A stretch of 57,737 bases of DNA, the filler included, from Dugesia japonica (Eukaryota), in the NCBI GenBank assembly GCA_001938525.1. It is 5 parts of 5 records of this genome, joined end to end, with 100 filler letters (N's around TTAATTAATTAA, not from the genome) between each part and the next. Parts side by side here need not be neighbours in the genome. Positions count along the whole stretch, not along the records: positions 1 to 9,800 come from MQRL01582793.1; 4 more parts are not named here. One strand, 5' to 3'. Position 1 is the first letter of the stretch. Each line of letters starts with the position of its first letter. Under the pieces are notes generated by a model, which saw nothing but the letters and a program-made list of their open reading frames with translations, was not told where the DNA came from and searched no databases. The translations under genes and the position numbers were made by a program. Of this stretch, positions 1 through 48,014 are shown piece by piece.

Positions 1-288
1 AATTAAAATATAAAATTAAAATATAAAATTAAAATATAAAATTAAAATATAAAATTAAAATATAAAATTTAAATATAAAATTAAAATATAAAATTAAAAT
101 ATAAAATTAAAATATAAAATTAAAATATAAAATTAAAATATAAAATTAAAATATAAAATTAAAATATAAAATTAAAATATAAAATTAAAATATAAAATTA
201 AAATATAAAATTAAAATATAAAATTTAAATTAAAATATAAAATTTTAATTAAAATATAAAATATAAAATTTAAATTAAAATATAAAAA
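1..288. repeat. 13-bp AT-only tandem array (AATTAAAATATAA)n
   Basis: About 20 near-perfect units read directly, degenerating just before ORF1. Confidence 0.95.
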
Positions 289-289
289 G

Positions 290-1486
290 TTGGACATGGC
301 AAAAAATATCAAATCTAAAATAATACTTAAAGAAATAGCAAAGCCTACTAACATGAACACTGAACAAGTTAATAAAAGAATTAAAGAATTAAAAAGTCAA
401 ATTAAAGCTCAACAAAAATATAACAACTTTTTCTGTGGTAATGTAATTAATTCAAGAAATATGCAAAATGAATTGTCTATCATGCAACAACCAACAATTA
501 AAGCTATAAATAAAACATTTAAAGAACAACAAATAAAAGATGAAATATTAGATCCAATAGTTAATCCACCAGTAGTTAATCCACCAGTAGTTAATCCAAT
601 AGTTAATCCAATAGTTGATCCATTAAATAATCCACCTATAGTTACTCTACCAGAATTTCCACCAGTATATACACAAAGAGAAATAATAGCAATAAGAAAA
701 AAAACAGCAAAACAAAGAACAATAAAAGCATTAAAAAATAAAATGATGCAAAATGAAAAAGATTTTAGACCTTATACAGAAGATAATATTCAGTATCTAT
801 TATCAGATGTAAATTCACAACCATTAATATTAAATAGTTTTATAATACCTCAACTAGAAAATTTAACAGAAAAAACAACACCATATATAATAGAAAAAAT
901 AGTAGAAGATAAAAAATATTTAACAATTAAATATCCAGATAATATTCATTTGTTATATTTATTAAAAAATAATAATGTTAATTGTTATTATTATAGAGGA
1001 ATTTCTAATTATTTTAGTGAAAAATATCAATATGTAATTTTTGGATATAAAGAACTTATAAAAAATGAAGATCCTAAAACATTAGAGTTTATTTTATTAT
1101 ATGTAACTGAACTTGTAAAAGTAGGATTAAAATATGATAAAGATGCATATTGTAAATTATTATTAGCTAAAAAACTAGGTAGACCTAGAAGAACATTTGA
1201 AGAAGAAATCGCTTCGCTTGACTCTGGACAAATTAGTGATGTACCATCTCAAGATCAAGATCCAGAGTCAGAAGATTTAGATATTGAAAAAATAATACCA
1301 AAACTAGGATCAGGTTTAAAATCTCCTATTGCATTATTTGAAAAATTAACATNATTAATTTCAGCAGTAAAATCTGGACATGATAATCTTAATGAAGATA
1401 ATAAAAAAGTATGTAAAAAATTAAAGATCCTAGGTTTAATATCTAACAAGATTTATGATAAATATAAAATGAAATATTTCCCATGA
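290..1486 (+). CDS. Maverick conserved protein, putative core/membrane-active protein (GasderX-like C-terminus); probable ATG at 296
   Basis: 398-aa ORF with VNPPV repeats; C-terminal GSGL followed by FEKL..LISAVKSGHDN..E...V...L...GLI resembles the helical module common in animal Mavericks. Confidence 0.6.
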   Translation: MDMAKNIKSKIILKEIAKPTNMNTEQVNKRIKELKSQIKAQQKYNNFFCGNVINSRNMQNELSIMQQPTIKAINKTFKEQQIKDEILDPIVNPPVVNPPVVNPIVNPIVDPLNNPPIVTLPEFPPVYTQREIIAIRKKTAKQRTIKALKNKMMQNEKDFRPYTEDNIQYLLSDVNSQPLILNSFIIPQLENLTEKTTPYIIEKIVEDKKYLTIKYPDNIHLLYLLKNNNVNCYYYRGISNYFSEKYQYVIFGYKELIKNEDPKTLEFILLYVTELVKVGLKYDKDAYCKLLLAKKLGRPRRTFEEEIASLDSGQISDVPSQDQDPESEDLDIEKIIPKLGSGLKSPIALFEKLTXLISAVKSGHDNLNEDNKKVCKKLKILGLISNKIYDKYKMKYFP

Positions 1487-1586
1487 AACATGTTAGCATG
1501 CGAACAATTAGATATAAAATGAAATATTTCCCATGAAACATGTTACATTTTACATCTAAGAAATAGAGTGAAACCCATAAAAGGAC

Positions 1587-2262
1587 ATGAGTCATCAATT
1601 CTTAATAGTTGGTAAAGAACATGAATTAATAATGGATTTAAAATATCCTATAGAATTAGATTCAGAATATGAACTTGGATTGTTATGTTTTAGTGTTTAC
1701 AATATTATATTTAACATTACAACTTTAAATAATAAATATAATAATGATACACTTGAACCAGGAGCATATGAAATAAAAGAAATAGCAGATAAATTAAAAA
1801 TTAAAAATGGAATAGAAGTTATACCAGATACATCAACAATAAAATGTAATTTAATAATANNNNNNNNNNNNNNNNNNNNNNNNNNNNNNNNNNNNNNNNN
1901 NNNNNNNNNNNNNNNNNNNNNNNNNNNNNNNNNNNNNNNNNNNNNNNNNNNATTCAGATAATAAAATTGATATTTCAAATATTAACATGATAAATGTAAC
2001 ATGTAATATTGTTAAAGGTAATTATCTTAAATCAGATCGTGGTGAAACAGAACAAATTAATTTATTATATTCATTTCCTATAAATTCAGTTCCATTTGGT
2101 TATAAAATTCTAGAAAGACCATCAACATGTATTTATTCTAAAATTAATACAAATTACATATCAAGATTNNNNNNNNNNNNNNNNNNNNAAAACTTTAACA
2201 CTATAGATTTTAACAATGAGGTGATTTCAATATTAGTACATCTACGTAAATATCGACATTAG
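1587..2262 (+). CDS. Minor capsid (penton) protein, split by N gaps
   Basis: PIELDSEYELGL, FNIT..NNK, EPGAYEI, INVTCNIVKGNY, LYSF, PFGYKILERP and IDFNNE.ISI.VHLR match the Polinton minor capsid pattern; the two ORF calls flank one gap. Confidence 0.85.
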
Positions 2263-2474
2263 ATTTTAGATTTTAGATTTTAGATTTTACATTTCACATT
2301 TCGCATATTTAGATTTTACATTTTACATATTTAGATTTTAGATTTTCCAAGTCTTGCATGACTCGGTAATTTTATAAGTTACATTTTTACATTTTAGATT
2401 TTGGAAGGAATGCATGCCTTCGAAATTATTACATTTTTCATATTTAATAAATAGCAAAGCTGGCCTACGGACAA

Positions 2475-2916
2475 ATGACTTATAATTTATTAGACTTTTT
2501 AAAAACATTTGGAATCAATACAACTACTAATTTTGATTTATATTCTATTGCTAACTTTTTAGATTTAGATTTAGAAATTTATATGAAAAATGAGATACCT
2601 AAAATATTACCTGATACAAATATTATTTTTAATTATCAAAATTCAAATCAAAATGGAATACATTGGACATGTTACAAAGATCATCAATATTTTGATTCTT
2701 TTGGTTTAAAACCTTTAGATCAACTTGAAAAGTATGTAACTAAATATAATGAAATTCAAGTTCAACATTATGGAACTAAAATATGTGGAGTATTATGTAT
2801 TTATTTTTTTATATAAAATCTCTCATGAAACATTTGATAATATCGCTTCGCTGACCTTGGGACAAATTATATCTGAGATGAAAGATTTATATGATAAAAT
2901 GAAACATGAAACATGA
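2475..2916 (+). CDS. Adenain-like cysteine maturation protease
   Basis: Catalytic motifs GIHW, YFDSFG, QVQ and ICG..C; removing one T from the poly-T near 2803-2810 extends the frame (YFLYKISHETF...) to TGA at 2914-2916. Confidence 0.9.
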
Positions 2917-2944
2917 AACATTTTACATTTAATAAAAGGATAAC

Positions 2945-4626
2945 ATGAATAAGTTTGGTGAAAGTATTAATGGTGTTAATACTACACAAATATTAAAAAA
3001 GGTAGATGCTAAATTTAGAACCTCAGATGCAATAAATGAAAATAAATTTGTAAATGAAACAGGTGACATGATCTCATGTTTAAAAATAATTGAAGATCCT
3101 TTAGATCTCCATGATGCAGTTAATTTAAAATATATTAAAACTCTTGAAGATAAATTAAAGACTCATGAATTAATATTCTCTAAATATTTAAAAATAAATA
3201 TTAACAAATATTATTTAGAATATAAAGCTGAACGTTTAAATAATCAATCTATAAATGATAAAATTAAAAATCTAACAAATAAATGTTCAGTATCAAAATA
3301 TGCTGATATCACTACTGAAATCCAAAGATTATTACTTGAAGTATTTCCATTTAAAAAAAGTGATCTAATAAATAAATTTAAAATCTTAATTAAAGATGAT
3401 CTATCTAAGAAATTAACTAAAGATGTTGACATGTTACATGATAAACTTAACAATTTACATGAAAATATTAATAAGAAAACATTTGATGAATACTTTCTTA
3501 ATATTAATACATTAAAATCTAACATTGATAATTTTATACTTAAAACATCAAATATAAGAAAAGAAGTTAAAATGATAAGACCACAACTTCATAAAATACA
3601 TGTTAAAAGATTAAATGAGTCATATGAAAATTATAAAGAAAAACTTGACATAAAAAATATAAAATATTTCATTGATAATTATTTACCACATTATTTTATT
3701 GAAACTGTTTATGAAATATTTAAATTTAAAAATAATAAATATAGCATTATGGAAAAATATGTTCACAATTTAGATTTTAAAAGAANNNNNNNNNNNNNNN
3801 NNNNNNNNNNNNNNNNNNNNNNNNNNNNNNNNNNNNNNNNNNNNNNNNNNNNNNNNNNNNNNNNNNNNNNNNNNNNNNNNNNNNNNNNNNNNNNNNNNNN
3901 NNNNNNNNNNNNNNNNNNNNNNNNNNNNNNNNNNNNNNNNNNNNNNNNNNNNNNNNNNNNNNNNNNNNNNNNNNTGATAGCTCTATTATAAATAAAGAAG
4001 TAAATATAAATTATATTGAAATAATTTTACTAAAAGGACTTAATTTAAATGAATTAAGTATTAACTTATTTAAATATGAAATACTTGATAGATTGACTAA
4101 AGAATTTAATATGATAAAAGAAAGACTTCACATAAAACATCTTAACATGTTTAATGTTTTATTTAAAAATTATAAAGAAAAACTTACACCTAAAGCATTA
4201 AAACCTTTAAGAGAAATGTTTAATAAATATTTACTTTATGATAGCGCTACGCTGGCGTCTACACATAAAAGTAATAACCCTGATATATTATTTTCAATTA
4301 ATTCTAGTCAAGAATTTAGTTATATGGAAAAATATGTACATGATTTTGTTTTTATAACGAAAGATATTTTTAGTATTACTTTAAGTACTAATATAAAAAG
4401 AAAACATGCTATAATTATAGATGGAGAATGTCAGATGGATAAATTTTTATATGCCATTAATATTAATAAAATTGGTGTATCATTTTTATGTATTCCTAAG
4501 GATAATAAATTTAACATTTATCGTGAAAACATTGAAATCTCTAGAGATGAAATTATAACTTTTATTTTAATATATTTTCCAGTAAAAGTTATCATAAAGA
4601 ATTTAAACATTAAATTTGTTATATGA
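2945..4626 (+). CDS. Putative fibre/accessory virion protein with internal duplication; likely one ORF across the 3786-3974 gap
   Basis: N-terminal MNKFG..., FVNETGDM and P.D.HDAVNLKY tail-fibre-like motif; frame is open from 3976 into the 4093 ORF; LH....NYKEKL and MEKYVH occur in both halves. Confidence 0.55.
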
Positions 4627-4629
4627 AAA

Positions 4630-5250
4630 ATGGATACAGAAAGTTTATATCCTAATTTGTCAGGAGTTCAGCATAATGATTTTGATGAAAGTAAAAACTA
4701 TACAATATTAGATTTAAAAAATGAAATTGCATTATCTAGAATTAGAGATTTTGAAAATGACCTTTACTTTATAAAAGATAAAATTAAACATTATAAGAAA
4801 ATACATAAAAGATGGAACAGAATAGATACAAGTATAAAATATACACAAATAGGTGTTAGTGTAATAATTGGAATTACAGGTGTTATATTAATTACACCAG
4901 CTGGAATTGCAATAACCGCTGTTGGTATACCGATTATTACTGGTGCAATTTCCATGTTACCTGTAATTGGAACATTAAATACTTCAGTGGTTAAATCTAG
5001 AAAAGAAAAGTATGAAAAGTTAATTAAGAAATTAGAATGTGTTAAAAATAAATTATTCTTATTTCAACANAAAGCAGTTAATGATGAAATACTTACTGAT
5101 GAAGAATTACAGATATCTAAAAATATGGTTAATGAAGTTCATGAGTTGATATCTGGACATAAAAAACAAAAAGATGATAATCTAAAATTATTAGTTGAAA
5201 GTCAAAGTAGAGTTATAAATGAAATGAAGTTGAAATTAGGAATACAATGA
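4630..5250 (+). CDS. Maverick coiled-coil / two-transmembrane protein with N-terminal LYPNL motif
   Basis: 206-aa ORF with a long Gly/Ile-rich hydrophobic hairpin (IGVSVIIGITGVILIT...PIITGAISMLPVIG) flanked by charged helices. Confidence 0.75.
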   Translation: MDTESLYPNLSGVQHNDFDESKNYTILDLKNEIALSRIRDFENDLYFIKDKIKHYKKIHKRWNRIDTSIKYTQIGVSVIIGITGVILITPAGIAITAVGIPIITGAISMLPVIGTLNTSVVKSRKEKYEKLIKKLECVKNKLFLFQXKAVNDEILTDEELQISKNMVNEVHELISGHKKQKDDNLKLLVESQSRVINEMKLKLGIQ

Positions 5251-5345
5251 GGAATGTGAAATGTAAAATATAATAAAAAANNNNNNNNNNNNNNNNNNNN
5301 NNNNNNNNNNNNNNNNNNNNNNNNNNNNNNCAAAAACCTAATAAA

Positions 5346-6592
5346 ATGGAGAGAATTAATAAATTAATAAATATAATTTTACATTATTGTGATGAATTAT
5401 GTGAAATAGAAAATTTACCAGATAAAATTACTGAAGAAGATTATTTTATAACTTTTTACAATAATCTTTATGACTATGAAGAAAAATAAAAAACACTAAT
5501 GGAAAATGAAAGATCTAATAGTGAAAGATCTAATATTAATATTGAAAATGAAACTGTTATTGAAATTGAAAGATCTAATAATGAAAGATCTAATATTAAT
5601 ATTGAAAATGAAAATGAAAATGAAACTGTTATTGAAAATGAAAATGAAAATGAAACTAGTGAAAGTGAAAGTGAAAAATTATTAGTTCTTAGAGATGATT
5701 GTACTAATCCAAGATATGAACATTTATATTCTAAAGCTAAAGCAAGAAATGAAAGATCTAATAATAAAGCAAGAAATGAAAGATCTAATAATAAAATAAC
5801 TAATAATAAAATAACTAATGAAAGATCTAATATTGAAATAACTAATAATAAAATAACTAATGTAATAACTAATATTGAAGAATCTAATATTGAAGAATCT
5901 AATATTGAATCTGAAAGTGAAAGATCTGAAAATGAATCTGAATCTGAAAATGAAAATGAAACACAAATTCCTGAATATGTAAGTAAAAACANNNNNNNNN
6001 NNNNNNNNNNNNNNNNNNNNNNNNNNNNNNNNNNNNNNNNNAAACTGAAAAAAATAAAATAAAACAAGGTAAGATTATTAAATCTAAAATTCAAAATATT
6101 TCATTTGAAGATGAACTTAAAAAATCTATAGAAGATAATATTAAAAAAATAACTGAAAAAGTAAATATAGACAAATTAGCAATTGAATGTCAAAATAATT
6201 ATCTTTCTTTAGAAATAAATTTATCTCGTGAAAATTTAATAGATAATATAAAAAAATATCAAGTTTGTCTTAAAGCTGTTAAAAAAGTGTCATTAGTTTC
6301 ATATGCAAAAATAGGAACATTTTTAATGTATTTAAAANNNNNNNNNNNNNNNNNNNNNNNNNNNNNNAATGCTAAAGATTTTATAAATTATCTAAGTGGA
6401 TATGAAATTAATTATGATATAAGTTATGTTAATAAATTAATTAGATTTGCTTTATTAGTTAATAAATGGAGAGATATTGTTTATTGTGATTTATCATTTA
6501 GAAAAGTTACAAAACATTTTAAAGAAATGGAAAATATAATTGAAAAAGATCCAATATTAAATCAAAAACCAAAATCTAAAATGTTAAGCTAG
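5346..6592 (+). CDS. Unknown Maverick protein with Asn/Glu-rich tandem repeats and helical C-terminal domain; one in-frame TAA near 5487 and two gaps
   Basis: ATG 5346 is in frame with the 5499 ORF; after the 5992-6040 gap an open frame runs into the 6287-6592 ORF. Confidence 0.55.
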
Positions 6593-7408
6593 AATAAGTC
6601 ATCTAACATTTCATCACTTTCCTTATTTAAATAATAATAATTATATTTAGTTTTCCAGTGAAGATTTACTTCATAATCATATTCTAACTTGTTATTAAAT
6701 ATATTAGAGAATAATTCATGATACACATTATCTCTATCAGTTTTATTTAACTTGAAAAATATATAACAATTAGAATTATTTCTNNNNNNNNNNNNNNNNN
6801 NNNNNNNNNNNNNNNNNNNNNNNNNNNNNNNNNCAATTAGAATTATTTCTTATAGAATTTTTATCTAGATGATAATATGTTTGTGAAATATAAATAACAT
6901 TACAATTAGAATGTCGACCTCGAGTGAAATAACTTTTTTGTATCTCTTGATTTTTCTCATTAACTACATCATCAAAAATAATTAGATTTTTCTTTTGTTT
7001 TGAAAGTCTATCACAAGATATTATTTCATTAGGTTTATTACTTAATGTTACAACTATANNNNNNNNNNNNNNNNNNNNNNNNNNNNNNNNNNNNNNNNNN
7101 NNNNNNNNNTGAATTGGTGTATTATAAGTTTTAGGTACTATATTTTGTTTTTCAAATATTAAATTAATTTCTTCTTTTGATAATCCATTTTCAAATCCAA
7201 TATATAACAGTTGAATCTCAAATTGAGAAATTGTTGTAGAATAAATTATTAAATTATCATAATCTAAAAAGTCAGGTGTTAGAAGCATTTTCATAAGTAA
7301 AACATTTTTACCACAACCTGATGAACCTATCATTAAAAGTCTAAAATTATTAGGTAAGATTATATTATTAAAATGTGTAATGTTATTATTCCAGATGTAC
7401 GAAGTCAT
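6589..7408 (-). CDS. A32/FtsK-HerA family DNA packaging ATPase
   Basis: Walker A GSSGCGKN, Walker B LIIFDD, RGRH arginine finger, YISQ; reading continues past the gap (NSNCYIFFKLN...MLDDLF*) to TAG at 6591-6589. Confidence 0.93.
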
Positions 7409-7642
7409 TTCTTATATATTTAATTTGATCATAAATTTCATATAACTCATCTTCTAAATAATAAAATAAAAGTTCAGTTTCATTTCCAATATCAAGATCA
7501 AAATCAAATACATCACTTTCTAAATNNNNNNNNNNNNNNNNNNNNNNNNNNNNNNNNNNNNNNNNNNNNNNNNNNATTAATGTAAAATTCAGACATTCTA
7601 TTATAAAATTTTAGATCAGACATTTTAGATTTTTTATTTTAA

Positions 7643-8982
7643 TCAGAGTGCTGACTTTTGTAATTCATTCGAATAAAATCTACCAAGTATTTTGTCGCCG
7701 TTAAGATTTGATATTTGAAATCTAAAAGGTTTTGTGTTATATATTTTTGTTAGGATATAAATTTTCTTTGACCATTTAAAACTATAACCTTTAGCAAATA
7801 ACTTTTTAATTTTAAACATTCTTACTCGATCTCCAATTTTAAATCTTAATTTTTCTGTGAATAGTTTATCAATTTTAACATGGATACTTTCAGGGTTAAG
7901 TGTTGCATTTTTAGGTGTAACATTAATACTTGAATGTATCGTATTATTAGAAGAATCAATTATATAATCTAATAATGTAGAATTTATATCTTGATTTCCA
8001 ACGGCAGTAAAATGTTTAAAAGTTTATGTTTAAATGTTCGGTTGAATCTTTCAATAACAACTGCTTTACCTTGATTTAATATTGAATATAATTCGATGTT
8101 ATTTTCTAGACAAAAAGATTTAAAATGTTTATTGTAAAATTCTAATCCATGATCTACCCATAATTTATTTGGTATTCTATTATTTTTATCTAAGATATTT
8201 TCAAATGCTTTTGTTATTGATATTCCTGTTTTATTTTTACATAGTTCAATGAATGCATATTTAGTATATAGATCTATAACTGTTAACATAATATGTTTAT
8301 TGTGAAATATTAAATCTGCAGACCAAATATCATCTATGTCATTTACTATTACTTTTAATAAATGTTTTGGTTTTTTATATTCTTTNNNNNNNNNNNNNNN
8401 TAATATATAATTTTTATCACCAACTTCTGACAGTAACTTTTTTAATTTTAATTTATTCTTTTCTTCTTTCATTTTTATTTTTAATTTATTCTTTGATAAC
8501 TGTCCTTTATGGCTCACTTCGCTCGTACCCTGACCAATAATTATTTTACCTTTCATTGCTAATTTAACTAACATTCTTTGAAATCTTTCTTGAAGTGTTG
8601 GATCCTTAATATTATTCATGTCATGTATTAAATTTACATCTGCAATATGACGATCTCGTATATTTTCTGATTTATAGGATATATCATGTTTTAATGCTGA
8701 TTGATCAATTCTATTTATTGGTTCTTCACCTGGCAATGGAATATTATTCTCATCAAGTCGGATATCAAGTCTTGTACCTGGACCAGTATAATTATGTTTG
8801 AATAAATGTCTTTCACCTGGATATTTTTCTGTTGTAATTGGTTTTAATAATGTTGATATTACTTTTGAATTTTGTAAGTCACCACCATGTTTCATATGAT
8901 TTATGCATAAATCTAAATGTCTAGATTTATTCTTTTTTAAAAGGATTTTACCACAATTGTCACATATAAAATTTTTATTCAT
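7643..8982 (-). CDS. Fusion ORF: C2HC zinc finger + parvovirus-type phospholipase A2 + retroviral-like (rve) integrase; -1 frameshift near 8017
   Basis: CDNC-x11-H-x3-C; YTGPG and DQSALKHDISY; DDE triad WSAD / WVDHGLEF / IERFNRT; -1 frame continues NNTIHSSINVTP, FKIGDRVR, KGY...W, GRFYSNELQK to TGA at 7645-7643. Confidence 0.93.
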
Positions 8983-9040
8983 TTATTTTTAAGAGGTAAT
9001 ATTTTAGAGGTAATATTTTACATTTAATATTTTTCATTTA

Positions 9041-9800
9041 TTATATATCTTGACCTTTTACATTTTCAATCATAACAACTTTAGAATTAGAAAGTTTCAT
9101 CTCTACATGTTTTTCTTCTAGTATACACCAATAAATTATCCCTTTAAAATCTGAATCCTTATTTATTTTAAGTGTTACATCTACATTATTAATATTCATT
9201 TTATTATCATGAGCTGATATGTCAAAACAGAATATTGGATATAAATTTCCAAAGTCTAAAAGTGATATTTGAGGTTCTATAAAAAAGTCACGACAACAAT
9301 TTATATAATTTAAATATGGATTTCCCATTTCATTATTTAACATGTTAAATTTTAATTCATTAGCTGGATAGTTTGTATTGTTTAATTGTAATTGAATTCC
9401 TTTTAAATAATTATTTCCAACTTTCTGTATAAATAGATTATCATTCTTTTGAAATGATGAATTTGGAGATTTAAAACAAATAAATATATATCTTGGTTGA
9501 TATGCAAGACTACCAATTTTTAATGAATAGAATGTACCTGTTTCTAAATTTGTTTTACCAGTTATTCTATTTAAATATGAAACTTTAATAGGTTTATCTG
9601 TAGATATTCTTTCTAACATCATTAATTCTGTATTTGGTAATAATCTAACTTCTGGAATATGAAATTCTAAAGTTTCTAATTCTAATTTACCTGATGTTGC
9701 AACTATAGCCGATGGCCCAACTGTTGCACCTTCACCATAAAATAATAATTTATCTTCAATTTGTCTGTTACATCTTAATTCTATACTTGTATTATATAAT
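9041..9800 (-). CDS. Major capsid protein (double jelly-roll), C-terminal half, 5'-truncated by scaffold end
   Basis: Frame open from 9800: IIYNTSIELRCNR, FHIPEVRL, PRYIFICF, LNNTNYP, YPIFCFDIS motifs of Polinton major capsids. Confidence 0.88.
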
Positions 9801-9844
9801 NNNNNNNNNNNNNNNNNNNNNNNNNNNNNNNNNNNNNNNNNNNN

Positions 9845-9856
9845 TTAATTAATTAA
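9845..9856. other. Artificial scaffold linker TTAATTAATTAA
   Basis: Identical six-frame-stop 12-mer between N runs; recurs four times. Confidence 0.95.
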
Positions 9857-12697
9857 NNNNNNNNNNNNNNNNNNNNNNNNNNNNNNNNNNNNNNNNNNNN
9901 TATAATCTTGATCCAAATATTTATTTTTGATTTAGACATTTTGTGGATAATTTTAACTTTGGCTGAACATTTTAATTGAACATATATAATGTTAATTAAT
10001 TTGAGTTTATATTGATTAGTTTGATTTTGTAAATAGACAGGTGAAATTTTATGTAAAATTTTATTGAATTTTATAATTTGAGTTTATATTGATTAGTTTG
10101 AGTTTGTAAATATACAGGTGAAATTTTATGTGGGATTTTATTTTAGACAAGTGAAATCTAATATATGTTGGAATTTTTATGGAATATTATTTAAAGATTT
10201 GTGAAATTATATGTTGGAATTTGTATGGAATTTTATTTTAAAGAAACAGGTGAAATTTTAGTTTATTTTTAATAGTATGTAAAAAGAAAAAATAAAATCA
10301 ATATGTAAAACCTTTTTAAAAATTTTGATTTTACTTTTAAGCACTTTAGAAAATTTCAAGATATTTTAATGAAATTTTTGTAATGTTTAATGATACTTAA
10401 AATTGAGTATATTGTGTTATGTTACGTTTAAATTAGTATAAATACAGATGATATTTTTAGTTGAAACAGTCATTTCATTTACAGACACTGACCTCTCAGG
10501 GAAGCTGTACTCTGGCAAATAAAATTGCTGCCTATAAGGTTTTTGAATAGNNNNNNNNNNNNNNNNNNNNNNNNNNNNNNNNNNNNNNNNNNNNNNNNNN
10601 NNNNNNNNNNNNNNNNNNNNNNNNNNNNNNNNNNNNNNNNNNNNNNNNNNNNNNNNNNNNNNNNNNNNNNNNNNNNNNNNNNNNNNNNNACACAGGGATA
10701 AAAATTAACACCCGTAAAATCACCAATCAGTCATTTATTATATCAGTAATAAATACAAAACATAAAATCTCTTTTGTTGAGTTAAATACCCAACACATAC
10801 TCCAAAAAAATTCATTTTCAGTTCTTGTTGATTTGACATAGAAAGGAGATGAAGTATCAATTGTATGGTAATGGTAAAGTGTGAGATGGAAACGAAATAT
10901 ATATGGCTCACAGTGCAGAACTTCCAGCTACATTGGGGATGATGAGTGATTTGGGTATCTCTTCCGGTAATTTATTTATAAGTAAAATAAAATCAACCTG
11001 CACCATTGTATCAATCATCGAATAATATGAATTAAACTAACGGTAGTAATTGAATATTAATGTGCTTTAATTAACTGTTATGATTATCCTTTTATTTCGA
11101 AGATGTCGCATAGGATTATGAAGACCGACGCATGTAAATCACTTAAAGAGAATAACTGGAAAATCAGTAGTGAGCCGGCAAACAATATACCAGTTCTCAG
11201 GGACTCCATAGGGCTAGAAGGTATGGATATCGAGCCCTGGTAAATCGTGCAAGATCAATTAAAATGGAAAAATGACCAAATTTGAATGATGGAAGAAAAT
11301 ATAGCACACTGGGAGCGACAACACTAGGAGAAACTGCAAAGAGTGGATCATCTGGAAGATCGCGCCTTGGAGTAGGAACAAAGGTACGAGTAACGACTAG
11401 CTCAAATAATTATGCATCAAAGAGAACGAGAAAAGGAACTAGTTACCTTGCTGATTGACACACCGAAATAATTAACCAGCAAAGCTGCTCATCAATACCA
11501 TGTAGGCCACACAACAGGAGGTGAAGGAGTTCGCCAAGCCAACCGAACGACTCTCCCAAAGAATCGAATCCGCTCTAAAGGAGATTCTGTTACCGCTTAA
11601 CGATAATGTACCTGAAAAAAAANNNNNNNNNNNNNNNNNNNNNNNNNNNNNNNNNNNNNNNNNNNNNNNNNNNNNNNNNNNNNNNNNNNNNNNNNNNNNN
11701 NNNNNNNNNNNNNNNNNNNNNNNNNNNTAAACAAACATATTAGATTTAATCAACTGCAATATTAACAAAAATTTAAATTAAGTTTAAAACTTAAAATCAT
11801 CCAATGCCAACAAATCACTTGCGGAATTAAAGAAAAAGTGGTTCGTAATTAATAAAAAATTGCAGGATGAAATCTCAGAGTTACAGCAAAAGAATATGTG
11901 GTTACGCAGGAAGAATACCAAAATAAAGCAACGTGATCTAGCCTCATCAAAACCGGTAGTAACATAACGGAAATTATTAAGTTATACGCTGATCGGGAAA
12001 GCATGTTAATATCCACTGTCAGGACGTTGAAAAATGAAATATTAAATAAGGACAATAATAATCAAATAATAATAATTAAAATAATAATAATTNNNNNNNN
12101 NNNNNNNNGGAGGAATAAAACGGAAGAGGATGCTCAAGACATTGTGGATCTAGATAAGTGATGTAAATATGTCATATTAATAAAATTTTCATGCACATCT
12201 TCTGAACGGACTTTAAATGAAAAATCAATATACTGCAGATAGTTAGAAACATGAGTGGTTCAATAAAATTAAATGACATAAATGCTACAAATTTTAAACA
12301 GCAATACATATCCATATAGTCATTTACGGCGACCAAATAAGGAAACTTGCTGATTTCTAAATAGAACTAAAAAATCCAAATGAGTCAGTGGATGTATTGA
12401 CTATAATCAAAGATATACCTGAAATCTCGTCAAACAAGGTATTAAGTTTGTTTTGGTTAGTTGAACAGTTTTAAGCGTTTTTAGATACCCTTTCATTTTA
12501 TTGGTGGATTTTTTCATTTATTACTTCCAAATATTTCAAAAAATGGATTTTATTGATCTAGATATGGTTGGATTTTTTTTTAATCATTCTGACTTTCTGA
12601 TAAAATATGATAATCATTTTAAATTATTTTATTATTCATTTTATTTAATATAAAAGCTTTGAACAAAATTTTGGTTTTGTTTATTAATATTGGATAA

Positions 12698-12734
12698 CAA
12701 TTTGATATTTCGACCTTGTCTTCGTCAGCAATTG
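12698..12734 (-). ncRNA. Minimal type I hammerhead ribozyme motif (Penelope-like pLTR)
   Basis: Minus strand caattg CTGACGA A GAC aag GTC GAAA TAT C aaattg; core intact, stem I with one mismatch. Confidence 0.65.
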
Positions 12735-12745
12735 ACTTAAAAAGT

Positions 12746-12782
12746 CCATTCCTGAAGAAGACATGGTCGAAATATCAAGTTA
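12746..12782 (+). ncRNA. Minimal hammerhead ribozyme motif, stem I degenerate
   Basis: ccattc CTGAAGA A GAC atg GTC GAAA TAT C aagtta. Confidence 0.5.
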
Positions 12783-13153
12783 TAAATAGCAAGTTATAAA
12801 TATCAAGTTATATCAGTTATAAATTGATATATAAGCTTTGTTTAAATATTGTCAGTTTTGTAATTATTATTTGAATTTTAATAAATAAACATTTATTGAA
12901 GAATCTTGTGTTCTAACTATAATAATAATAATTTAACTAATATGTTTAATTCAGACATTGCCTAATAGATTATTCTGGAATATTTGTACAAATTCTGACA
13001 AATAAAATAAATAAATGTCTTAAAATCCTTTTCAACAATAAATAGAATCCATAATAATTTTTTTATAATAAAATTTTCCTGGCAATTTTCTTGTTTAATA
13101 AAATGAAAATAGTATTAATAAAGCTATTTAAATATTTTACTCTTGTTTCCTTT

Positions 13154-16100
13154 TCATAAGCTACTTTTATTTGCATTTGACAAATTATCTATAGTTGATC
13201 CAAAATCAATCACCGACGCAGTTGTAATTGAACATAAACCTTTGCTGTCTATCGTTTTCAAATCAAAGTCTTGAGTAAAATAATTTCTAGTCAAGGTCTC
13301 TTCACACGCGGACCAATCATCGATAATTTCCATGTCATAACAATTGACTCTGGGTCTATGAAAACAAGATGCTTCTTTATTTATATCAGGGCTAGTATTT
13401 TTGTTTTCATAAACAATTTCTCCGCAGTTTTCTTTTGAATCATTTGTGAAATTCAACATTTCTTTTTCAGAATAGTCAATTTGAAAAACATCACTTATTA
13501 TTGGAGATCGAAAACTGACTGATTTAATCAATGCATTATTATTACATTTTGGAGAAATTATNAGTAGAGATTGATTATTAATCGGAACATCTTTAAACAG
13601 TTCCATTATACGCTCTGTAGATTCTAGAAATTCTTCTGCTAAATTATCACTGAATTGAGTGAATCTATTGTGATTACAATATATTTGTTCTTCATTGACA
13701 GTTTGAAAATATAAACTATAATTTTTAAAATTTTCTTCTTCGAAAATTAAGTTGGAATTTTCTACTTCAATATCCTTTAAGAAGTCAACAGATTCATAAA
13801 TGTTATTCGTTTCATTTGTACTTTCTTTAACAAATAAATGATTTTTTATTGTGATTTCATTTTTGTTTAAATATAATTCACTTTCTTTCTTATCTACTTC
13901 TACGCCTGGATCATTTGATTTTAAATTAACATATTCTCCATTAAAATCATCAATAAAATCAGTAGAATTTGGAAATTGTAATTCCATATTTTTTGAATAA
14001 AAAACGTTTGTATTACTAGAATTATTTATAAGATCGATTTCAGTCTGGCATTCTTTGGATGTTAATGAAATAACTGAAGTGGATGGATGAATCATTTTAT
14101 TAGGAATATTAGTTTTAGAACTAGTGAGTAATGTTGCACAATCAATAACAGGTAAATCATTTGACCAAGTTTGAATGAATTCATCCTTTTTCACATTATT
14201 GTTTTTTCTATCATCATATTTTTTAGAAGAATAGATTTTCTTGTCTGATAATAATTTGATTACATTTGAATCCATTAAATCGGATTTTTTAGTGAATGAT
14301 TTCGTTTTTCTACAAGAATTTTTCATTTGGTTTAATTTCCATTTTTTGAAATTGCTATTTTTTCTCAATGGTATTCTTTGATGATTTAATAATTCAAATT
14401 TATCAATTGTTTTGATTTCGGATTTTTCTTTGAATTTATCTCGATTGATTTCTGAATGAAATTGGAAATGATTTTTTCTATTTACATTATCTAAATAAAT
14501 ATTTTTTATTGAACCTTGTAAATCAATTTTATCATTAAAACGATTCTGATTGATTTCCAAATAATTAAAATGATTCTGTGATAATTCTTTCATTTCTATT
14601 TCATGTAAAATCGATTTCGTTAGTAATGCAGTTGTGTTTGATTGGTTTTCATTTAATGAAATTTCAGAATTGGATTTCATTGATCCGAATGTTGTAATAT
14701 TTTTAATTACACATTTTGGTTTCGATTTTGAAATGTTTGATTGTATTTTTGAATTGTAAACTATATTTTCATTAATAGATTTTTTGGAGATTGAAAATTT
14801 TGGTTTTGGAGCACGAAAATAATTATACATTTGATATTGTTTTAATTGATANNNNNNNNNNNNNNNNNNNNNNNNNNNNNNNNNNNNNNNNNNNNNNNNN
14901 NNNNNNNNNNNNNNNNNNNNNNNNNNNNNNNNNNNNNNNNNNNNNNNNNNNNNNNNNNNNNNNNNNNNNNNNNNNNNNNNNNNNNNNNNNNNNNNNAAAG
15001 GTCGTTTGAAATGATTTAAACAATATTTATCAATTATATTATTTGGATTCATTTTGTATTTGTTTATTAAATGACTATATTGATTATTTTGTTCTTGAAT
15101 TTTATTATCGTTTAAATTAAATGACTGTGTTGTAACAGCTTCTTTATTGCTTGTATTTTCAACACGAGATTCTAAAGATTTATTTAAACCCCGATTAATA
15201 ACATCGAATTTTCTTTTTGTTTCAAGATTATTAAAAAAATTATGAATAAATACACTTGGAAATTTTTTAGCAGTAAATTTTTCTGTTGAAAATTCATTTA
15301 ATCGATTTTCTATTTCTTCATTTTTAGATGAAATTCCGTCCCATATTTGATTTTCCAATTTACTTTTATTATTATTAATAAACGGAATATTTACAATATT
15401 GAAATGTTCTTTGATTTCTGATGATGAATCGACAGTAAAATGCTGAGGCAATTCTGGAATATAAAACGATTTTGAATCTAAAGAAAAGTCTTTTGAAAAC
15501 GAATTTCGCTGATATTTATTCAATTGTAAATTAAATTGAACCTTTTTATTTGTTAAAATTAATTTTTCATTTAAATTTTGAGAAAATTTCATTATTTCAT
15601 TTTCAGGGTGATATTCTTTAAGAATATTTATTAATTCTATTGGGATATTATTTAATGGCATTTTGTTATCATCTGTATCGAAAAATTTAATTTCATTTTT
15701 CAATATTGAAAAATCAATATATTGACCATTAGTGGTTAATTTCAAATATTTCGTCCAACGAGAAATATCCGCACGCATACCTTCAATAAGAAAATCGATT
15801 AAACCATTTTCATGATTAATCAAAAACGATTTCAACCGATCTAATCTGAAATTATTAAAATCTTGAATTGCCATCTGGAAATTCGAAAATCCCTTTATTA
15901 GATTTATATAATAATCTGGAAAGAAAAATATTAATTCATATTTACTAAACTGCTTATAAAATGAATATTTTCTGTAAAGCTCCAAATCTCCGTATGTAAA
16001 TCCGAAAATCATTTCAAAAATGACCATAGAACAACTGAAATAATCGACATGAAAATCTAGATTTTTGAGATTATTACCATGTTTTGGTAAGGTTTTTTCA

Positions 16101-17038
16101 TTTAAATTTTGAGCTCTAATATGTGGTTCAATATAGTAATAATTACCACAATATCGCATTCGTTTTACTGGGTCTTTCATTGATAAATAATTTTCCCCAA
16201 ATCCGAATTCAACAAAAGCTCTTGAACAATATTGAAGTAAATGAAATTGTTTTACATAACCTAAATCTGTAATTTTCAAAATTCCATTTGTAGTTATTAT
16301 GATATTAGACGGATTCAAATATTTATGAATTATACCTTTTTCATGAAAGTAAGAAACACCTGATAATAACTGAAGAAAAAGATTTCTAACAATATTCATG
16401 AAATCCGGAAAATTTTCTTTGCTTTTATCTAATGTACTATTGCATGTGTATAATAAATGAACAAAATCGTGTTCATCATCAACTTTAGATTTGAGAATTT
16501 TTCTATGCAATAAATAATTAACCAGTTCTAAGCTAACAGACGGATTACTTTCAAATACATACCAGATAGACTGAAATCCATTCTTTTCTATAACAATTTC
16601 TTCAATTAATTTTATTATATGATCTGAATTTAATATCAAAAGTTGTTCAGTTTCTTTCTTTATTGATTTCGTAAGATGATTTGAAAACGAATTAATAATA
16701 TGTTTTAAGATTACATTTTCATTGGTTTGTTTCGATTTTGATAAATAGCAACAGCCGAAATTCTTAGATAATGTTTTACATATATTATTATATTTAATTA
16801 TCGGTTCATTGACATTTGGAAAAATATGCCATGGATAACGTATTTTATTTTCTTTAATAAATAATCTAAAACTTTGGATATGTCCATAAAAATTTTCTTC
16901 ATGTAAAGAAAAATGAATTCTATAATACTTCAGAAATTTATCATTATGACTTGAATTTTTAAATAGAAAATTACTATATCCGGAATTAGGGTTAGTAGAA
17001 GAATTTTTAGAATAATCACAACTAAATTGAATAACCAT
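13154..17038 (-). CDS. Intronless protein-kinase-fold protein (CMGC/CDK-like), probable pseudokinase, with long Asn/Lys/Ser-rich tail
   Basis: 1294-aa ORF with one N gap; QLLSGVSYFHEKGIIHKYLNPSNIIITTNGILKITDLG (subdomains VIa-VII), YYIEPH (VIII), VDYFSCSMVIFEMIFG (IX). Confidence 0.8.
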   Translation of the reverse strand: MVIQFSCDYSKNSSTNPNSGYSNFLFKNSSHNDKFLKYYRIHFSLHEENFYGHIQSFRLFIKENKIRYPWHIFPNVNEPIIKYNNICKTLSKNFGCCYLSKSKQTNENVILKHIINSFSNHLTKSIKKETEQLLILNSDHIIKLIEEIVIEKNGFQSIWYVFESNPSVSLELVNYLLHRKILKSKVDDEHDFVHLLYTCNSTLDKSKENFPDFMNIVRNLFLQLLSGVSYFHEKGIIHKYLNPSNIIITTNGILKITDLGYVKQFHLLQYCSRAFVEFGFGENYLSMKDPVKRMRYCGNYYYIEPHIRAQNLNEKTLPKHGNNLKNLDFHVDYFSCSMVIFEMIFGFTYGDLELYRKYSFYKQFSKYELIFFFPDYYINLIKGFSNFQMAIQDFNNFRLDRLKSFLINHENGLIDFLIEGMRADISRWTKYLKLTTNGQYIDFSILKNEIKFFDTDDNKMPLNNIPIELINILKEYHPENEIMKFSQNLNEKLILTNKKVQFNLQLNKYQRNSFSKDFSLDSKSFYIPELPQHFTVDSSSEIKEHFNIVNIPFINNNKSKLENQIWDGISSKNEEIENRLNEFSTEKFTAKKFPSVFIHNFFNNLETKRKFDVINRGLNKSLESRVENTSNKEAVTTQSFNLNDNKIQEQNNQYSHLINKYKMNPNNIIDKYCLNHFKRPXXXXXXXXXXXXXXXXXXXXXXXXXXXXXXXXXXXXXXXXXXXXXXXXXYQLKQYQMYNYFRAPKPKFSISKKSINENIVYNSKIQSNISKSKPKCVIKNITTFGSMKSNSEISLNENQSNTTALLTKSILHEIEMKELSQNHFNYLEINQNRFNDKIDLQGSIKNIYLDNVNRKNHFQFHSEINRDKFKEKSEIKTIDKFELLNHQRIPLRKNSNFKKWKLNQMKNSCRKTKSFTKKSDLMDSNVIKLLSDKKIYSSKKYDDRKNNNVKKDEFIQTWSNDLPVIDCATLLTSSKTNIPNKMIHPSTSVISLTSKECQTEIDLINNSSNTNVFYSKNMELQFPNSTDFIDDFNGEYVNLKSNDPGVEVDKKESELYLNKNEITIKNHLFVKESTNETNNIYESVDFLKDIEVENSNLIFEEENFKNYSLYFQTVNEEQIYCNHNRFTQFSDNLAEEFLESTERIMELFKDVPINNQSLXIISPKCNNNALIKSVSFRSPIISDVFQIDYSEKEMLNFTNDSKENCGEIVYENKNTSPDINKEASCFHRPRVNCYDMEIIDDWSACEETLTRNYFTQDFDLKTIDSKGLCSITTASVIDFGSTIDNLSNANKSSL

Positions 17039-20000
17039 GATGAAATTATGTGGAAAACTTTAGAGAAAAATCTATCACTAGAATCGTTGTAAGCATCAAT
17101 AATAATTATTTAATTTTAATATATCACAAAATTTAGTATTAAAATAATTTTCATTAATTATTTAATAATAAATCAATATTATTAAGTAAATATTTATTAA
17201 TGTTCAATTCAAATTATAAATGATTTAACACATGAAAATTCAGAATTGTATTTGGAGATGTGTTACCTTAAAGTTTTGAAACAATAAAGCTAAATATATT
17301 TTCTAAAAGTAGTATTATTAGTATTTGTTTTTTACTAATAGTTTTTGTGGGGAGATTCAGACAAAATATTTACAAAATATTAACTCATTCATGTACTTAT
17401 TTATAAGCACAACGTATTATAAAAGTAAAATCCAAACTTTTGAAAGCACTACATATTTCCAAATCCGATATATTCTGATCTAACTAAAGCGGGCTCAACT
17501 TGTTGTTGAATTGCGTTGTTCAATGTTGTCTTTAAAGCTTTCGATGCATTCAATAATGATGTTGCAGTCAAGTTTATTTTTTATCAAGTTAATTTTAGAA
17601 ATTTTCAGCTTCATATTTTATAAAGTAATCGAAAAATTTTCTTCAATCATTTGCTCAACATAATTTAATATCTCAACAGCAAATTTGATGGTCCCTTTTC
17701 TCAACTATTTAGTCGTACAATCTTACACCCATTCTTTTTATAACGTCTAATTATAGAAGTGGTGTTTTATTATTTCTTGCAATTTTTGTTGATTCTGCAA
17801 TTTATTTATCTTCTTGATATAATTTTTATGAAAATCTCTGAACTAGTTATACAAAACTTTCCATTTGGTTTTTGAAGATTAACAGGTAAGTTATCTGTAT
17901 CTTCTAACCTGACATAATCTGAATCTTCTGTGATTTGCATTACTTGCCGATATTTGTTATTATTTTTAAATACTTCATTCTTCGGAGGACGTATTGATAT
18001 TAATTTTTATAAAGGGTATTAAAAGATTTTAAATTAACATATAATTTGCTATCCGATTACAACAATTGCTAAAATTTAAACAAGTTTAAGTTAATTCCAA
18101 GCAAAAGAAACATATTTGAAACTTAATAATGCAGTTCTGTCGGCTTTAGTTTGATCTCAGATTTTGACGTATGTAGTAGTGCTTTCAAAAATACGGATTT
18201 ATTACTTTTATAATATGGCAAAAATAATTTGCCAAAATCGCAAGAATTGTTAAGATCACATACGCACTGATATAAATATTTAGAAACAAATACATATACA
18301 AATACCACACACAAACAAATAATTGATACTCAACTCAACAACAGATCAATAAATCTTCAACATACGATGCAACAACCACCAATCAATTCACAACAATCAA
18401 AAAACAAAATCAACAACTCAAAGTGTGATATAAACTCAACATACGATGCAATATCCGATAATATTTCATCACGTGTATTGATTTTCAGACTTTGTTATTT
18501 ATTAAATCAGTAACCTCAATTCACANGCACTTTTATCATTGATAAAATATATCTGAATTTTTTTTGTTTAATTTGAACCAGTCAGTTTTAAGTGTATATA
18601 TTTTATCAACAAACTTTATTGGGAATTTTAAATATTGGAAAATTTTATTTTATCCGGAATTAGTTGTTTATATTTTATTCAATTTTATTATTTATCTGAA
18701 AAATAACTGCAAATATTTTATTTTTTTATATAAATAACTATTTGTTATGTAAAAAATTGAGTACGATTATTTTATGTTTATGTAATTGTAACAAAAAATT
18801 GTCTTCTGGTCTCTAACCTTTANGGACAACAGTTCCAGTTTGATTTAAAATTTTGCACTATAAGGTATAAGACTACTCTGTATTGTTAATACATCAAAAA
18901 TATTATTTTTAAATGTATTTTTTGTTTATTTAAATAAGAACTTTACACATATATTACAATATTTAAAGCTTTTTTAAACGATATTACATTTATATATTAC
19001 ATCATTAACACATAAACAAAGATCAAATAAATTAACACCCATAAAATAATTATCAAAGTTATCAATTTTAGTTTTAAAATATCGAAACATAATATCTTTT
19101 TGTTGAGTAGAAATACCCAACATAATTATGGCATTCCAATTAAATCTNACATAAGCGGACTCGACTGTATTATATTTAATATAATAAAATTTAATTTGAA
19201 AATAAAGAAGTTTCAGTTGAAGTTAAAAACCGATATTTAGTTCAAATAGGTCCTTACTTTTAAATAAGTTAATTCTGAGTTATTATATCAGTGATATCAT
19301 TTAGTTTGATTATTATTAGGAAGATCAACTGGAAGTACCCAAAGAAATGTTTAATGAGGCTAGACAGTTAAGAAAATATCGAAAGTGAAATCTATTACGG
19401 TCGAAGAAATGTCAGAATCTCAGATCTAATCATTGCTTGCACAAATGTATAATTAAACATTTCGTGTCATTTTAATCCATATAGCTCGTTTTACGAATGA
19501 GTTTCAGTTTGTAATGGAGTATCATAATATGATTGGGAGTTCATTGATATGTTTCCATCTGCTATTGAGTTGTTCGACAATGTGATTGAATAGTAGCCGA
19601 GTTTCCTTAGTAGAATTGTTTATTAAAGCTGAGTGAGATTTAACACCTCAATCTTAAACCGTGATGAAAGTTGTGATTAATGGTTCTTTAGTATACACTT
19701 TATGCCTATATACACAATTACCCTTATAATCTTTTATATTGTAGTGCTTAACAAAGAAGATACAATGCCGCCCGGGTTCTAAACGAGCAGCAACACAAAT
19801 AGAAAAGCACCAGCATTAAGTTGAACGATAAACCCATTTTAAAACTTAAAGAGCGGAACAAGGATTTTCAAGAGCAGGATCTTGTCCTGCAGAATGCTAG
19901 CTGACTTAGTAAAAGTTACGCAAATTGTGGTGGCCATGAGGACGAAAATACAAACCAGGTTGGCTGCATACAAGTCAGTTTACGATGACAAAGATAGAGG

Positions 20001-40568: not shown

Positions 40569-40988
40569 TCAACGAAATCTTTCCAAATCTTTTAAAAAAC
40601 TTGACTTTTGATTTCGACTATTTTTCAACTTCTTAGCATCGGGACACTGAAAACAATTCCACAATCTAATTTGTTCATCTTCTCCAATCGTTGCAACCAC
40701 TTCTCCAGTGGGATTGGTCATCATAGCAATGATTGCTTTATGATGTCCTTTCAATTCCACCATTGCTGACAGATTGTCTTCGTGTAATATTTTGATTCGG
40801 AAATTTTCATTGTCTTCCGATGAGATGGCAACCTCATCGAAAATATCACTCCAAAGCACGCAACTAATAAAGCTCTCGGTCGTAATGGTTTTTATACAGA
40901 CTTTTTGGAGAACATCGAAAATTTTCAACACGCTGTTAATATCTGCTGAACAACAAATGAATAAATTTCTATCTTTATAGTTCCATGC
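40569..40988 (-). CDS. Divergent Cdc20/Fizzy-family APC/C co-activator, 3' part
   Basis: WD40 repeats ending ELKGH...NPTGEVVATIGEDEQIRLWNCF; C-terminal SSFL...FR tail; 5'-truncated by scaffold end. Confidence 0.75.
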   Translation of the reverse strand, partial: AWNYKDRNLFICCSADINSVLKIFDVLQKVCIKTITTESFISCVLWSDIFDEVAISSEDNENFRIKILHEDNLSAMVELKGHHKAIIAMMTNPTGEVVATIGEDEQIRLWNCFQCPDAKKLKNSRNQKSSFLKDLERFR

Positions 40989-41032
40989 NNNNNNNNNNNN
41001 NNNNNNNNNNNNNNNNNNNNNNNNNNNNNNNN

Positions 41033-41044
41033 TTAATTAATTAA
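41033..41044. other. Artificial scaffold linker TTAATTAATTAA
   Basis: As at 9845. Confidence 0.95.
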
Positions 41045-41310
41045 NNNNNNNNNNNNNNNNNNNNNNNNNNNNNNNNNNNNNNNNNNNNCGATTTTCAATG
41101 AAAGAAAAACCCGATAATGAAATTATATTCCTACAAAAACCAATTTATGATTTGAAAGGCATAATAGAAAAAAACCAAAATGCAAAAAAACGACGAAAAT
41201 GTCAATTACACATCAATAATACTGGTCAAAGTTCATTCATTGCAAATTGTTGTTGATAAGAAATGACAAAATGTTATGAAATCAATAATCAAACAAAATA
41301 TATTTCTTGA

Positions 41311-42145
41311 TTAGTACATGGAAATAGTGTTGTTTGAACGAGGAATTTTAATTCTCTCTAAATTTTTATTGATCATGTCATGCAAAATTGCCTAAAATAC
41401 TTAATAAAGTAAATAACAAAACATTAACTTACATAATGATTTCTCATTTCCATTACGATATACCTTAATGAAATTGCTTGCATTTCATCGGCATTTTTAA
41501 CACATTCGTGATAATCCATAATATTTGGAAATTTAATAACTTTAGTTAACATTTTAGCTCTACTAATGTGATATCGGCTCATTTGTTCTAGAAAATTAGA
41601 TGCATCTTTTTCAATACTGACAGCTTCGCCGAGTACCTCTTCTTGAATCCCTACTCCAAAATTGTTACCATCTTCAATTTTAGGAATATTAAATTGAATC
41701 CATAATCGAACTTGAAGAGCTTCTTCCATCAATCTAGTGATATGTGGTCTAAGTATCTTAATTAATACAATTAAAAAAAGTCAATAAAAGAATCAATGAC
41801 ATACATCCATCATCACTTTAATTTTAGGATTAATTGGAATATTGTTNNNNNNNNNNNNNNNNNNNNNNNNNNNNNNNNNTGAAATATTAATGTCTTCACA
41901 TAAAAATCTGGCAGATTCTAGAATATGTATTAATTTAACTAAATTTATAACCATTTATTTACTGAAATCAAATTCCTTAGAATTCAAAATGTCTTCCATT
42001 TCAAAAACACGCTTAGGGAAAACATTTCTCACTAAATATTCCCCTGATTCTTTGGTTTGATTTTTATAATTTGTTAATTCTTTTGACCTATCGCCATCCT
42101 GGAAAAAATTTAAAGTAATACAACTTCACTTGTTAAACTTACCAT
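41311..42145 (-). CDS. PSME3: Proteasome activator PA28/REG (gamma-like), five exons, first coding exon is ATG only
   Basis: WIQFNIPKIEDGNNFGVGIQEE activation loop; N-terminal YLVRNVFPKR; C-terminal ILHDMINKNLERIKIPRSNNTISMY*; four short GT-AG introns (first 42142-42099). Confidence 0.92.
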
Positions 42146-47880: not shown

Positions 47881-48014
47881 GTTGTAGTAATATAGATGTA
47901 CATAAAAATAAATATAAATATGAAAATAAAAATAATGCAAATGTTGAAATTTAAAATTTAAAAATTTTGTCGAAACAATTTAAAAATTAAAGGGAGAGAG
48001 TGTTGTAAGAAGCA

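Follow-up and report, generated by a model that had tools for sequence, protein, structure and literature searches.

A Phospholipase A2–Integrase Fusion Gene in a Maverick Element of Dugesia japonica and a Predicted −1 Frameshift Junction in Its Relatives

Introduction

In the Gag-Pol and Gag-Pro-Pol polyproteins of retroviruses, an enzyme is added by a −1 shift at a heptamer accompanied by a structure, and the viral protease then releases it. A heptamer plus a closely spaced downstream stem is the layout known for ribosomal −1 shifts.

As for Mavericks, their particles have not been observed, according to the abstract of PMC8097293, and two questions are open. Do these elements make infectious particles? 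And how does their integrase reach the incoming genome? The accessible text of PMC8502044 and PMC5803895 describes a parvovirus-type phospholipase A2 (PLA2), with a proposed membrane role, in alpha-adintovirus PLA2X and in Sf Maverick CAP, and the literature, in its accessible parts, describes the Maverick PLA2 as encoded by its own gene or as carried on a pX-like tail. In mavirus, the protease cuts at GG↓X and GX↓G, and particles contain the integrase and a cleaved, predicted α/β hydrolase (PMC6048507, accessible sections). Furthermore, −1 frameshifts have been predicted for adintovirus Penton and Hexon-Adenain (PMC11071296, accessible part), so that a programmed −1 shift is already proposed in the same virus group, in other genes. 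Finally, a DUF5679 or AMEV120-like protein of unknown function occurs in >40% of coral polintovirus regions, and the accessible main text of PMC11131425 makes no link between it and either PLA2 or integrase.

The locus described here lies in a 57,737-nucleotide stretch of Dugesia japonica DNA, which we call the window. Like PLA2X and Sf Maverick CAP, it has a parvovirus-type PLA2 in a Maverick, and its family shares the K-x-K-x-G-x-G domain end; in contrast to PLA2X, where a pX-like tail follows and a gene of its own encodes the integrase (9 loci), the integrase comes directly after the PLA2. With mavirus it shares the GG↓X or GX↓G motif, although there the packaged proteins come from separate genes and the enzyme is an α/β hydrolase rather than a PLA2 (PMC6048507, accessible sections). 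The likeness of the family to Gag-Pol, which here is a predicted one, lies in a structural protein that comes first, an enzyme added by a −1 shift, release by a protease, and the same rve fold. The differences are that we deal with a double-stranded DNA, double-jelly-roll virus, that the carrier is a lipase core protein rather than a capsid protein, and that a separate enzyme, of clan CE, serves as the protease.

The PLA2–integrase fusion, or its junction, is undescribed in the literature searched, as far as its text was accessible and with Repbase and most subscription papers outside the scope. It is also absent from the searched supplements of PMC8502044 and PMC11071296; three files of the latter could hold it. 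Precomputed Pfam annotation already shows the two-domain architecture.

The Fusion Gene and Its Element in Dugesia japonica

A preliminary description of this DNA had read a finger, a PLA2 and a complete DDE integrase from a single frame. The order of the domains is confirmed on the minus-strand open reading frame (ORF) from 8982 to 7984; the single frame is not, since a break near 8010–8023 puts the last third of the integrase into a different frame. The features of the gene are:

7984..8982 (−): main ORF of 332 codons, starting at 8982, with zinc finger, PLA2, linker and integrase core
8896..8964 (−): small Cys/His finger, C-x2-C-x11-H then C or H (from sequence; weak Pfam match)
8878..8892 (−): KHGG-D, residues 31–35, predicted protease site upstream of the PLA2
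8527..8832 (−): parvovirus-type PLA2 domain with YTGPG, HDxxY and D115 (PF08398)
8527..8541 (−): IIGQG, residues 148–152, predicted protease site at the PLA2 end
8401..8526 (−): Lys-rich linker, in frame (from sequence)
8386..8400 (no strand): 15 N, equal to five codons and frame-compatible, letters not read
8017..8385 (−): rve integrase core with D223, D277 and E311 (Pfam and comparison with relatives)
8010..8023 (−): frame break in the integrase, copy-specific as far as tested (ORFs and sibling pieces)
7643..8020 (−): C-terminal third of the integrase in the other frame (50% identity to residues 333–461 of the relative P0002)

The PLA2 has the hallmarks of the parvovirus type: a PF08398 match that passes the Pfam cut-off (E 2.2e-8), a YxGxG calcium loop (YTGPG, residues 65–69) and HDxxY (HDISY, 99–103), both intact as had been claimed, with an extra Asp, D115. 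A Ca-dependent phospholipase activity is predicted. The pX-like C-terminal domain that follows the PLA2 in alpha-adintovirus PLA2X is absent in the window, and the integrase stands in its place. The glycine motifs said to flank the PLA2, KHGG-D and IIGQG, are both present. Less remains of the proposed C2HC finger: the Cys and His residues are there (C7, C10, H22, C26, H29), but the Pfam scores are weak and under the cut-off (E 0.013–0.033), and in relatives the spacing is C2H2 or the finger is missing.

As for the integrase, the main ORF contains only the core with its D223, D277 and E311, rather than the complete enzyme, and the rve match (E 3.8e-6, 27.5 bits) is under the Pfam cut-off of 32.6. 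The ORF departs from the integrase frame after about codon 322, and profile positions 134–264 sit in a separate frame from 8023 to 7643. This C-terminal piece ends where the profile ends, so the window integrase lacks a chromodomain, as stated earlier. The gap at 8386–8400 had been singled out for checking; it is compatible with an open frame because five residues separate the corresponding flanks in a 50%-identical relative, though its letters are not read. The linker is in frame as far as this gap, with no −1 shift at the window's own PLA2–integrase junction. That the fusion of PLA2 and integrase is real seems to us virtually certain.

The break itself is a property of this copy. Its position is crossed in one ORF by 110 of the 114 loci fetched. 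In three DNA runs of the same organism, 3007–3150 contigs match a 786-base stretch at ≥85% identity, and the family is therefore a high-copy one. Among the contig pieces listed, none of which covers the whole stretch around the break, the 8 that lie across it all align with 1–3 gaps, although the indel table for these alignments is empty, and the other 16 are gapless. About a quarter of one poly-A sequencing run yielded 6 partial reads of <90% identity, which weigh on neither side. The break near 8010–8023 would best be read as decay or as an assembly error in this copy. A programmed shift at this place was considered, since a short T/A run resembles a slippery site, and was rejected: the hairpin is absent (z −1.07), the break falls inside the catalytic domain, and nearly all of the loci just mentioned read across it.

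The fusion gene is surrounded by other genes of the element:

296..1486 (+): likely core protein, KLGSG before a pX-like C-terminal helix (from sequence)
1588..2262 (+): minor capsid protein (penton), changing frame across an N run (ORFs and comparison with relatives)
2478..2819 (+): adenain-like cysteine protease, ending right after the catalytic Cys (tblastn hits in 34 loci)
6776..7411 (−): A32-like packaging ATPase with N runs inside it (PF04665, E 2e-10)
9041..9799 (−): major capsid protein, only the C-terminal half matched (41% to residues 188–417 of the L038 capsid protein)

An rve integrase, though broken in this copy, together with a packaging ATPase, major and minor capsid proteins and a cysteine protease, all partial or interrupted, is the gene set of a Maverick/Polinton (adintovirus). 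The ORF at 296..1486, which we take to be a core protein with a pX-like helix, has no tblastn match in the fetched loci. A protease had been placed at 2475–2916; an adenain-like protease is indeed found there, but in two frames, with an ORF that stops at 2819 after the catalytic Cys, a match that ends at residue 121 of 147, and no Pfam match for the ORF 2478..2819. No protein-primed PolB match adjoins the element, and the only PolB-like segment, of 46 aa, lies at 57577–57714, at the right edge of the window. PolB was found in the relatives L041, L053, L064, L082 and L086; the queries overlooked long ORFs of L001 and L044, probably PolB, and labels of genes as "split" are noisy. Among 25 of the 187 pairs for 1–13000, the search for terminal inverted repeats gave low-complexity and N pairs only; the element may continue to the left of window base 1, with its left end outside the window. 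Within 1–10500 there are 14 N runs, several being 50 or 51 bases long, and gap lengths may be inexact because the penton changes frame across one of them.

Two further observations concern this region. An AT-only 13-nt unit forms a tandem array at 1–260, upstream of the first element gene, and the ORF at 4627–5250 has a hydrophobic mid-segment and 26–28% identity to a gene adjacent to the fusion in L029, L031 and L032.

The Fusion in the Family

The fusion is conserved in relatives. PF08398 and PF00665 occur together in 104 of 120 homologs, these being the best 120 of 687 matches, and in 41 of the 150 representatives listed at the 50% cluster level. HDxxY is kept in 114 of 117 homologs and Y/F-x-G-x-G in 86 of 117, and the D/D/E of the integrase in 109–110 of 111. 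The finger is optional: among 119 homologs it is C2H2-like in 15, C4 in 6 and missing in 98. In the model of P0002 (pLDDT 86), finger, PLA2 and integrase are separate units, with low confidence at the first GG, and the integrase resembles those of foamy virus, MELD virus and mavirus in a fold search. The same kind of search with the PLA2 of a relative's model (pLDDT 70) gave a weak match to rice sPLA2 (E 0.58, Z 5.3).

The integrase is also found behind other partners, namely a cysteine protease in L009, L039, L047 and P0154, with G-rich linkers in the loci, and what we take to be a pX-like helix in P0261. These fusions appear to point the same way as packaging of the integrase.

The PLA2 module, for its part, is joined to several unrelated tails (P0136–P0156 and others) and therefore behaves as a mobile N-terminal unit. 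In L066:514-2499, L070 and P0186 the fusion is in frame with an insert of ~240 residues and a second GxG before the integrase helix. L111–L115 are viral contigs with a PLA2 and no integrase in the fetched flank, of which L113 looks like a small virus of another kind. In a scan of prokaryote genomes, the 4 contigs that matched were short, came from metagenome bins and were probably misbinned.

The Junction between PLA2 and Integrase

How are the two domains joined in the relatives? The junction was surveyed in 107 loci, in 52 of which the PLA2 lies ≤800 nt upstream of the integrase. The integrase is in frame in 29 of these, in −1 in 20 and in +1 in 2, and one has an in-frame stop. None of the 20 −1 loci has a Met ahead of the integrase domain, and in 18 the first Met comes after the first catalytic Asp; a Met ahead is found in 39 of the 40 other integrase ORFs away from contig edges; the one that lacks it shares the slippery junction. 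Tails of chromodomain length are associated with the −1 state (18/20 vs 2/20).

De-replication at 85% identity left 17 −1 loci and 23 in-frame loci. An in-phase X XXY YYZ heptamer ≤24 nt from the GxG is present in 14 of the former and in none of the latter (Fisher p 3e-8), with L106, which is in frame and has a heptamer, dropped from this count as a duplicate of L100. The heptamer precedes the stop in 13 of the 17 loci, and the slippery site comes after the motif equivalent to IIGQG of the window. A downstream hairpin with z below −2 was predicted in 8/17 −1 loci vs 1/23 in-frame loci, and on the integrase tree 8 of the hairpin loci form one clade; in the other 9 −1 loci, an A-rich run is followed by a weak structure or by none. 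A 12-bp stem, beginning 5 nt after A AAA AAC, is 97.5% paired across 10 related loci, as against 31–68% for slid controls; three pairs show compensatory change and the loop varies in length, while covariation of the stem does not exceed the shuffle control (76, 78 and 22 of 500). L108, found by the PLA2 pattern alone, is a −1 locus with its own Met before the integrase. In L053, L059 and L108, every other marker gene found is intact. A DNA pattern for the hairpin matched 12 viral contigs, none with a PLA2 or integrase.

Separate ORFs for PLA2 and integrase, which the preliminary description had named as evidence against itself, are formally seen in these 20 loci; the predicted frameshift signal joins them, and the observation therefore strengthens the model. 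Programmed −1 recoding in the relatives is, from the arrangement of these signals, very probable. Could the polymerase slip on the A run in transcription instead, with the same protein outcome? About half of the −1 loci, with an A-rich run and no strong hairpin, would suit such a process, and not all runs are canonical for tandem tRNA slippage (L059, L078 and L108 have a non-canonical run at the junction). On the other hand, an in-phase A AAA AAC with a stem 5–7 nt downstream, the layout of a ribosomal shift, occurs in the hairpin clade as well as in L051 and L037, and we regard transcriptional slippage as improbable.

Programmed recoding would also yield a short product, and short PLA2 proteins are abundant: a profile built from short PLA2 ORFs matched 2343 clusters, and one cluster alone has 2359 members, 14 of the 15 listed being 166 aa long and on contigs of 0.5–5 Mb. 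In the −1 loci, the N-terminal ribbon of these proteins is DUF5679, which differs from the finger of the window. We scored 118 of the 120 short DUF5679-PLA2 proteins listed, taken without their DNA context; 109 end ≤25 residues from the GxG, and the remaining 9 read past the junction, into the integrase helix where the tail was inspected. K-K or K-N follows the GxG directly in 106 of the 118, vs 10 of 109 in-frame fusions. We infer that a −1 integrase lies behind these 118 proteins.

A last reading of the −1 junctions is that they are artefacts, either of deletion in the A run by assembly error or decay, or of an integrase that is spliced or starts at a non-AUG codon. It has in its favor that the −1 state arises from one-base deletions, that the pairs L100/L106 and L087/L090 resemble run-length noise, and that the A runs between PLA2X and protease vary, with frame 0 twice, −1 three times and +1 once. 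But the shifts are concentrated at one spot and frame changes elsewhere in the integrase are rare. The A run is missing altogether from most of the in-frame relatives inspected (of 13 junctions printed, 10 have no run of ≥6 A), the 2359-member cluster has a stop after the junction, the hairpin is retained despite its variable loop, and linkers of 21–33 nt leave little space for an intron. We thus hold an artefact to be very improbable.

The PLA2X–protease junction of L002–L008 deserves a separate word. It has a run of A9–A14, in frame in L003 and L005, −1 in L002, L004 and L008, and +1 in L007, and is possibly a second recoding site or run-length noise; the protease behind PLA2X has its own Met in these loci.

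In the integrase tree (118 sequences, quick search, 10 near-duplicate loci omitted) the window, whose row occupies 46% of the columns, falls within a 32-row set that has strong support; 28 of these rows are in-frame and one is −1. Elsewhere on the tree the two states interleave, and strong branches force ≥8 changes.

Glycine Motifs and Predicted Processing

The sites at which the fusion might be cut are conserved far above background. GG/GxG follows the PLA2 in 106 of 117 homologs and comes before it in 63 of the 75 that have enough leader; in control windows of the integrase, the figures are 5 of 2361 and 7 of 900, respectively. These are GG↓X or GX↓G motifs at domain borders, of the kind associated with the mavirus-type clan CE protease. 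The adenain consensus invoked earlier is not the rule in the family: P4 of the C-terminal site is Lys in 66/106 and M/I/L in 15/106, and P4 of the N-terminal site is M/I/L in 4/63. In the window, IIGQG does fit adenain and in this is an exception within the family, whereas KHGG does not. Motifs similar to KLGSG recur in small proteins of relatives, a count made without a control.

The GxG may also have a simpler meaning. In predicted structure models it terminates the last PLA2 helix and could act there as a structural cap, and the K-x-K-x-G-x-G end is not special to the fusion because stand-alone PLA2X proteins share it. Cleavage at the G motifs by the protease of the element is probable.

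This simpler meaning belongs to a wider alternative, in which fusion and frameshift are real and serve expression control rather than packaging: the integrase would borrow the promoter and start codon of its neighbor, the frameshift would keep a toxic enzyme scarce, and the protein would act uncut inside the cell, with the GxG as a helix cap. The GxG at the helix end, its presence in stand-alone PLA2X, a P4 that does not match adenain, and the expression of the integrase from its own Met in many relatives all agree with it. What it accounts for less well is the second GG before the PLA2 in the 63 homologs, which falls in a low-confidence stretch of the model, and the fact that the other fusion partners are also predicted virion proteins. 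In addition, the in-frame type loses the down-regulation yet retains both motifs. We consider expression control unlikely.

Proposed Mechanism

We propose that the intact fusion protein is a virion core precursor that would bring the integrase into the particle, the PLA2 protein being a virion core protein as PLA2X was proposed to be (PMC8502044, accessible text). In the −1 type, most ribosomes would yield the short PLA2 core protein, with or without a zinc ribbon, and a minority would shift to make PLA2–integrase, which would set a low integrase share, in a ratio as in Gag/Gag-Pol. In the in-frame type, which includes the clade of the window, only the fusion would be made, at 1:1. After assembly, the cysteine protease of the element would free both parts; the PLA2 may help the particle to leave the endosome, by analogy with parvovirus VP1u, and the integrase could insert the incoming genome without prior transcription.

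The strength of this proposal differs from part to part. Packaging of the integrase through its fusion to PLA2 is likely, and the −1 junctions in relatives lend it independent support. The complete statement, that the integrase enters the particle on a PLA2 core protein, in a fusion that the protease cleaves, whether recoded or constitutive, we hold to be somewhat more plausible than its negation. If repeated switches of lineages like that of the window to a fixed 1:1 fusion are included, the reading is about evenly balanced. The idea of co-packaging and protease release had been put forward for this very copy; the conserved fusion and GG/GxG sites support it for the family only. The window copy is broken in its integrase and probably in its protease, and the model therefore applies to the family, not to this copy.

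What would be gained? If the proposal is true, it is genomic evidence for selection on virion delivery of the integrase in elements whose particles are unobserved. Given a conserved fusion to a predicted entry lipase and a tunable frameshift, one can say in advance which virion peptides and cut sites to expect, and the junction signal of ~100 nt is open to a virus-free reporter test. Gene callers place the start of the −1 integrases beyond the first catalytic Asp, or would call the locus a pseudogene, and intact elements may therefore be mis-scored as dead. DUF5679-PLA2, a common polintovirus protein of unknown function, would be given a role. A decayed copy in one genome may in this way point to a widespread, testable, Gag-Pol-like route of integrase delivery in Mavericks.

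Other Observations in the Window

Outside the element, the window has a decayed retroelement pol at 48000–49400 and, at 40569–41780 on the minus strand, ORFs that we take to be WD40-like and proteasome-activator-like. The minus strand of 13154–17059 carries an uninterrupted ORF of 1301 codons for a host-type protein kinase.
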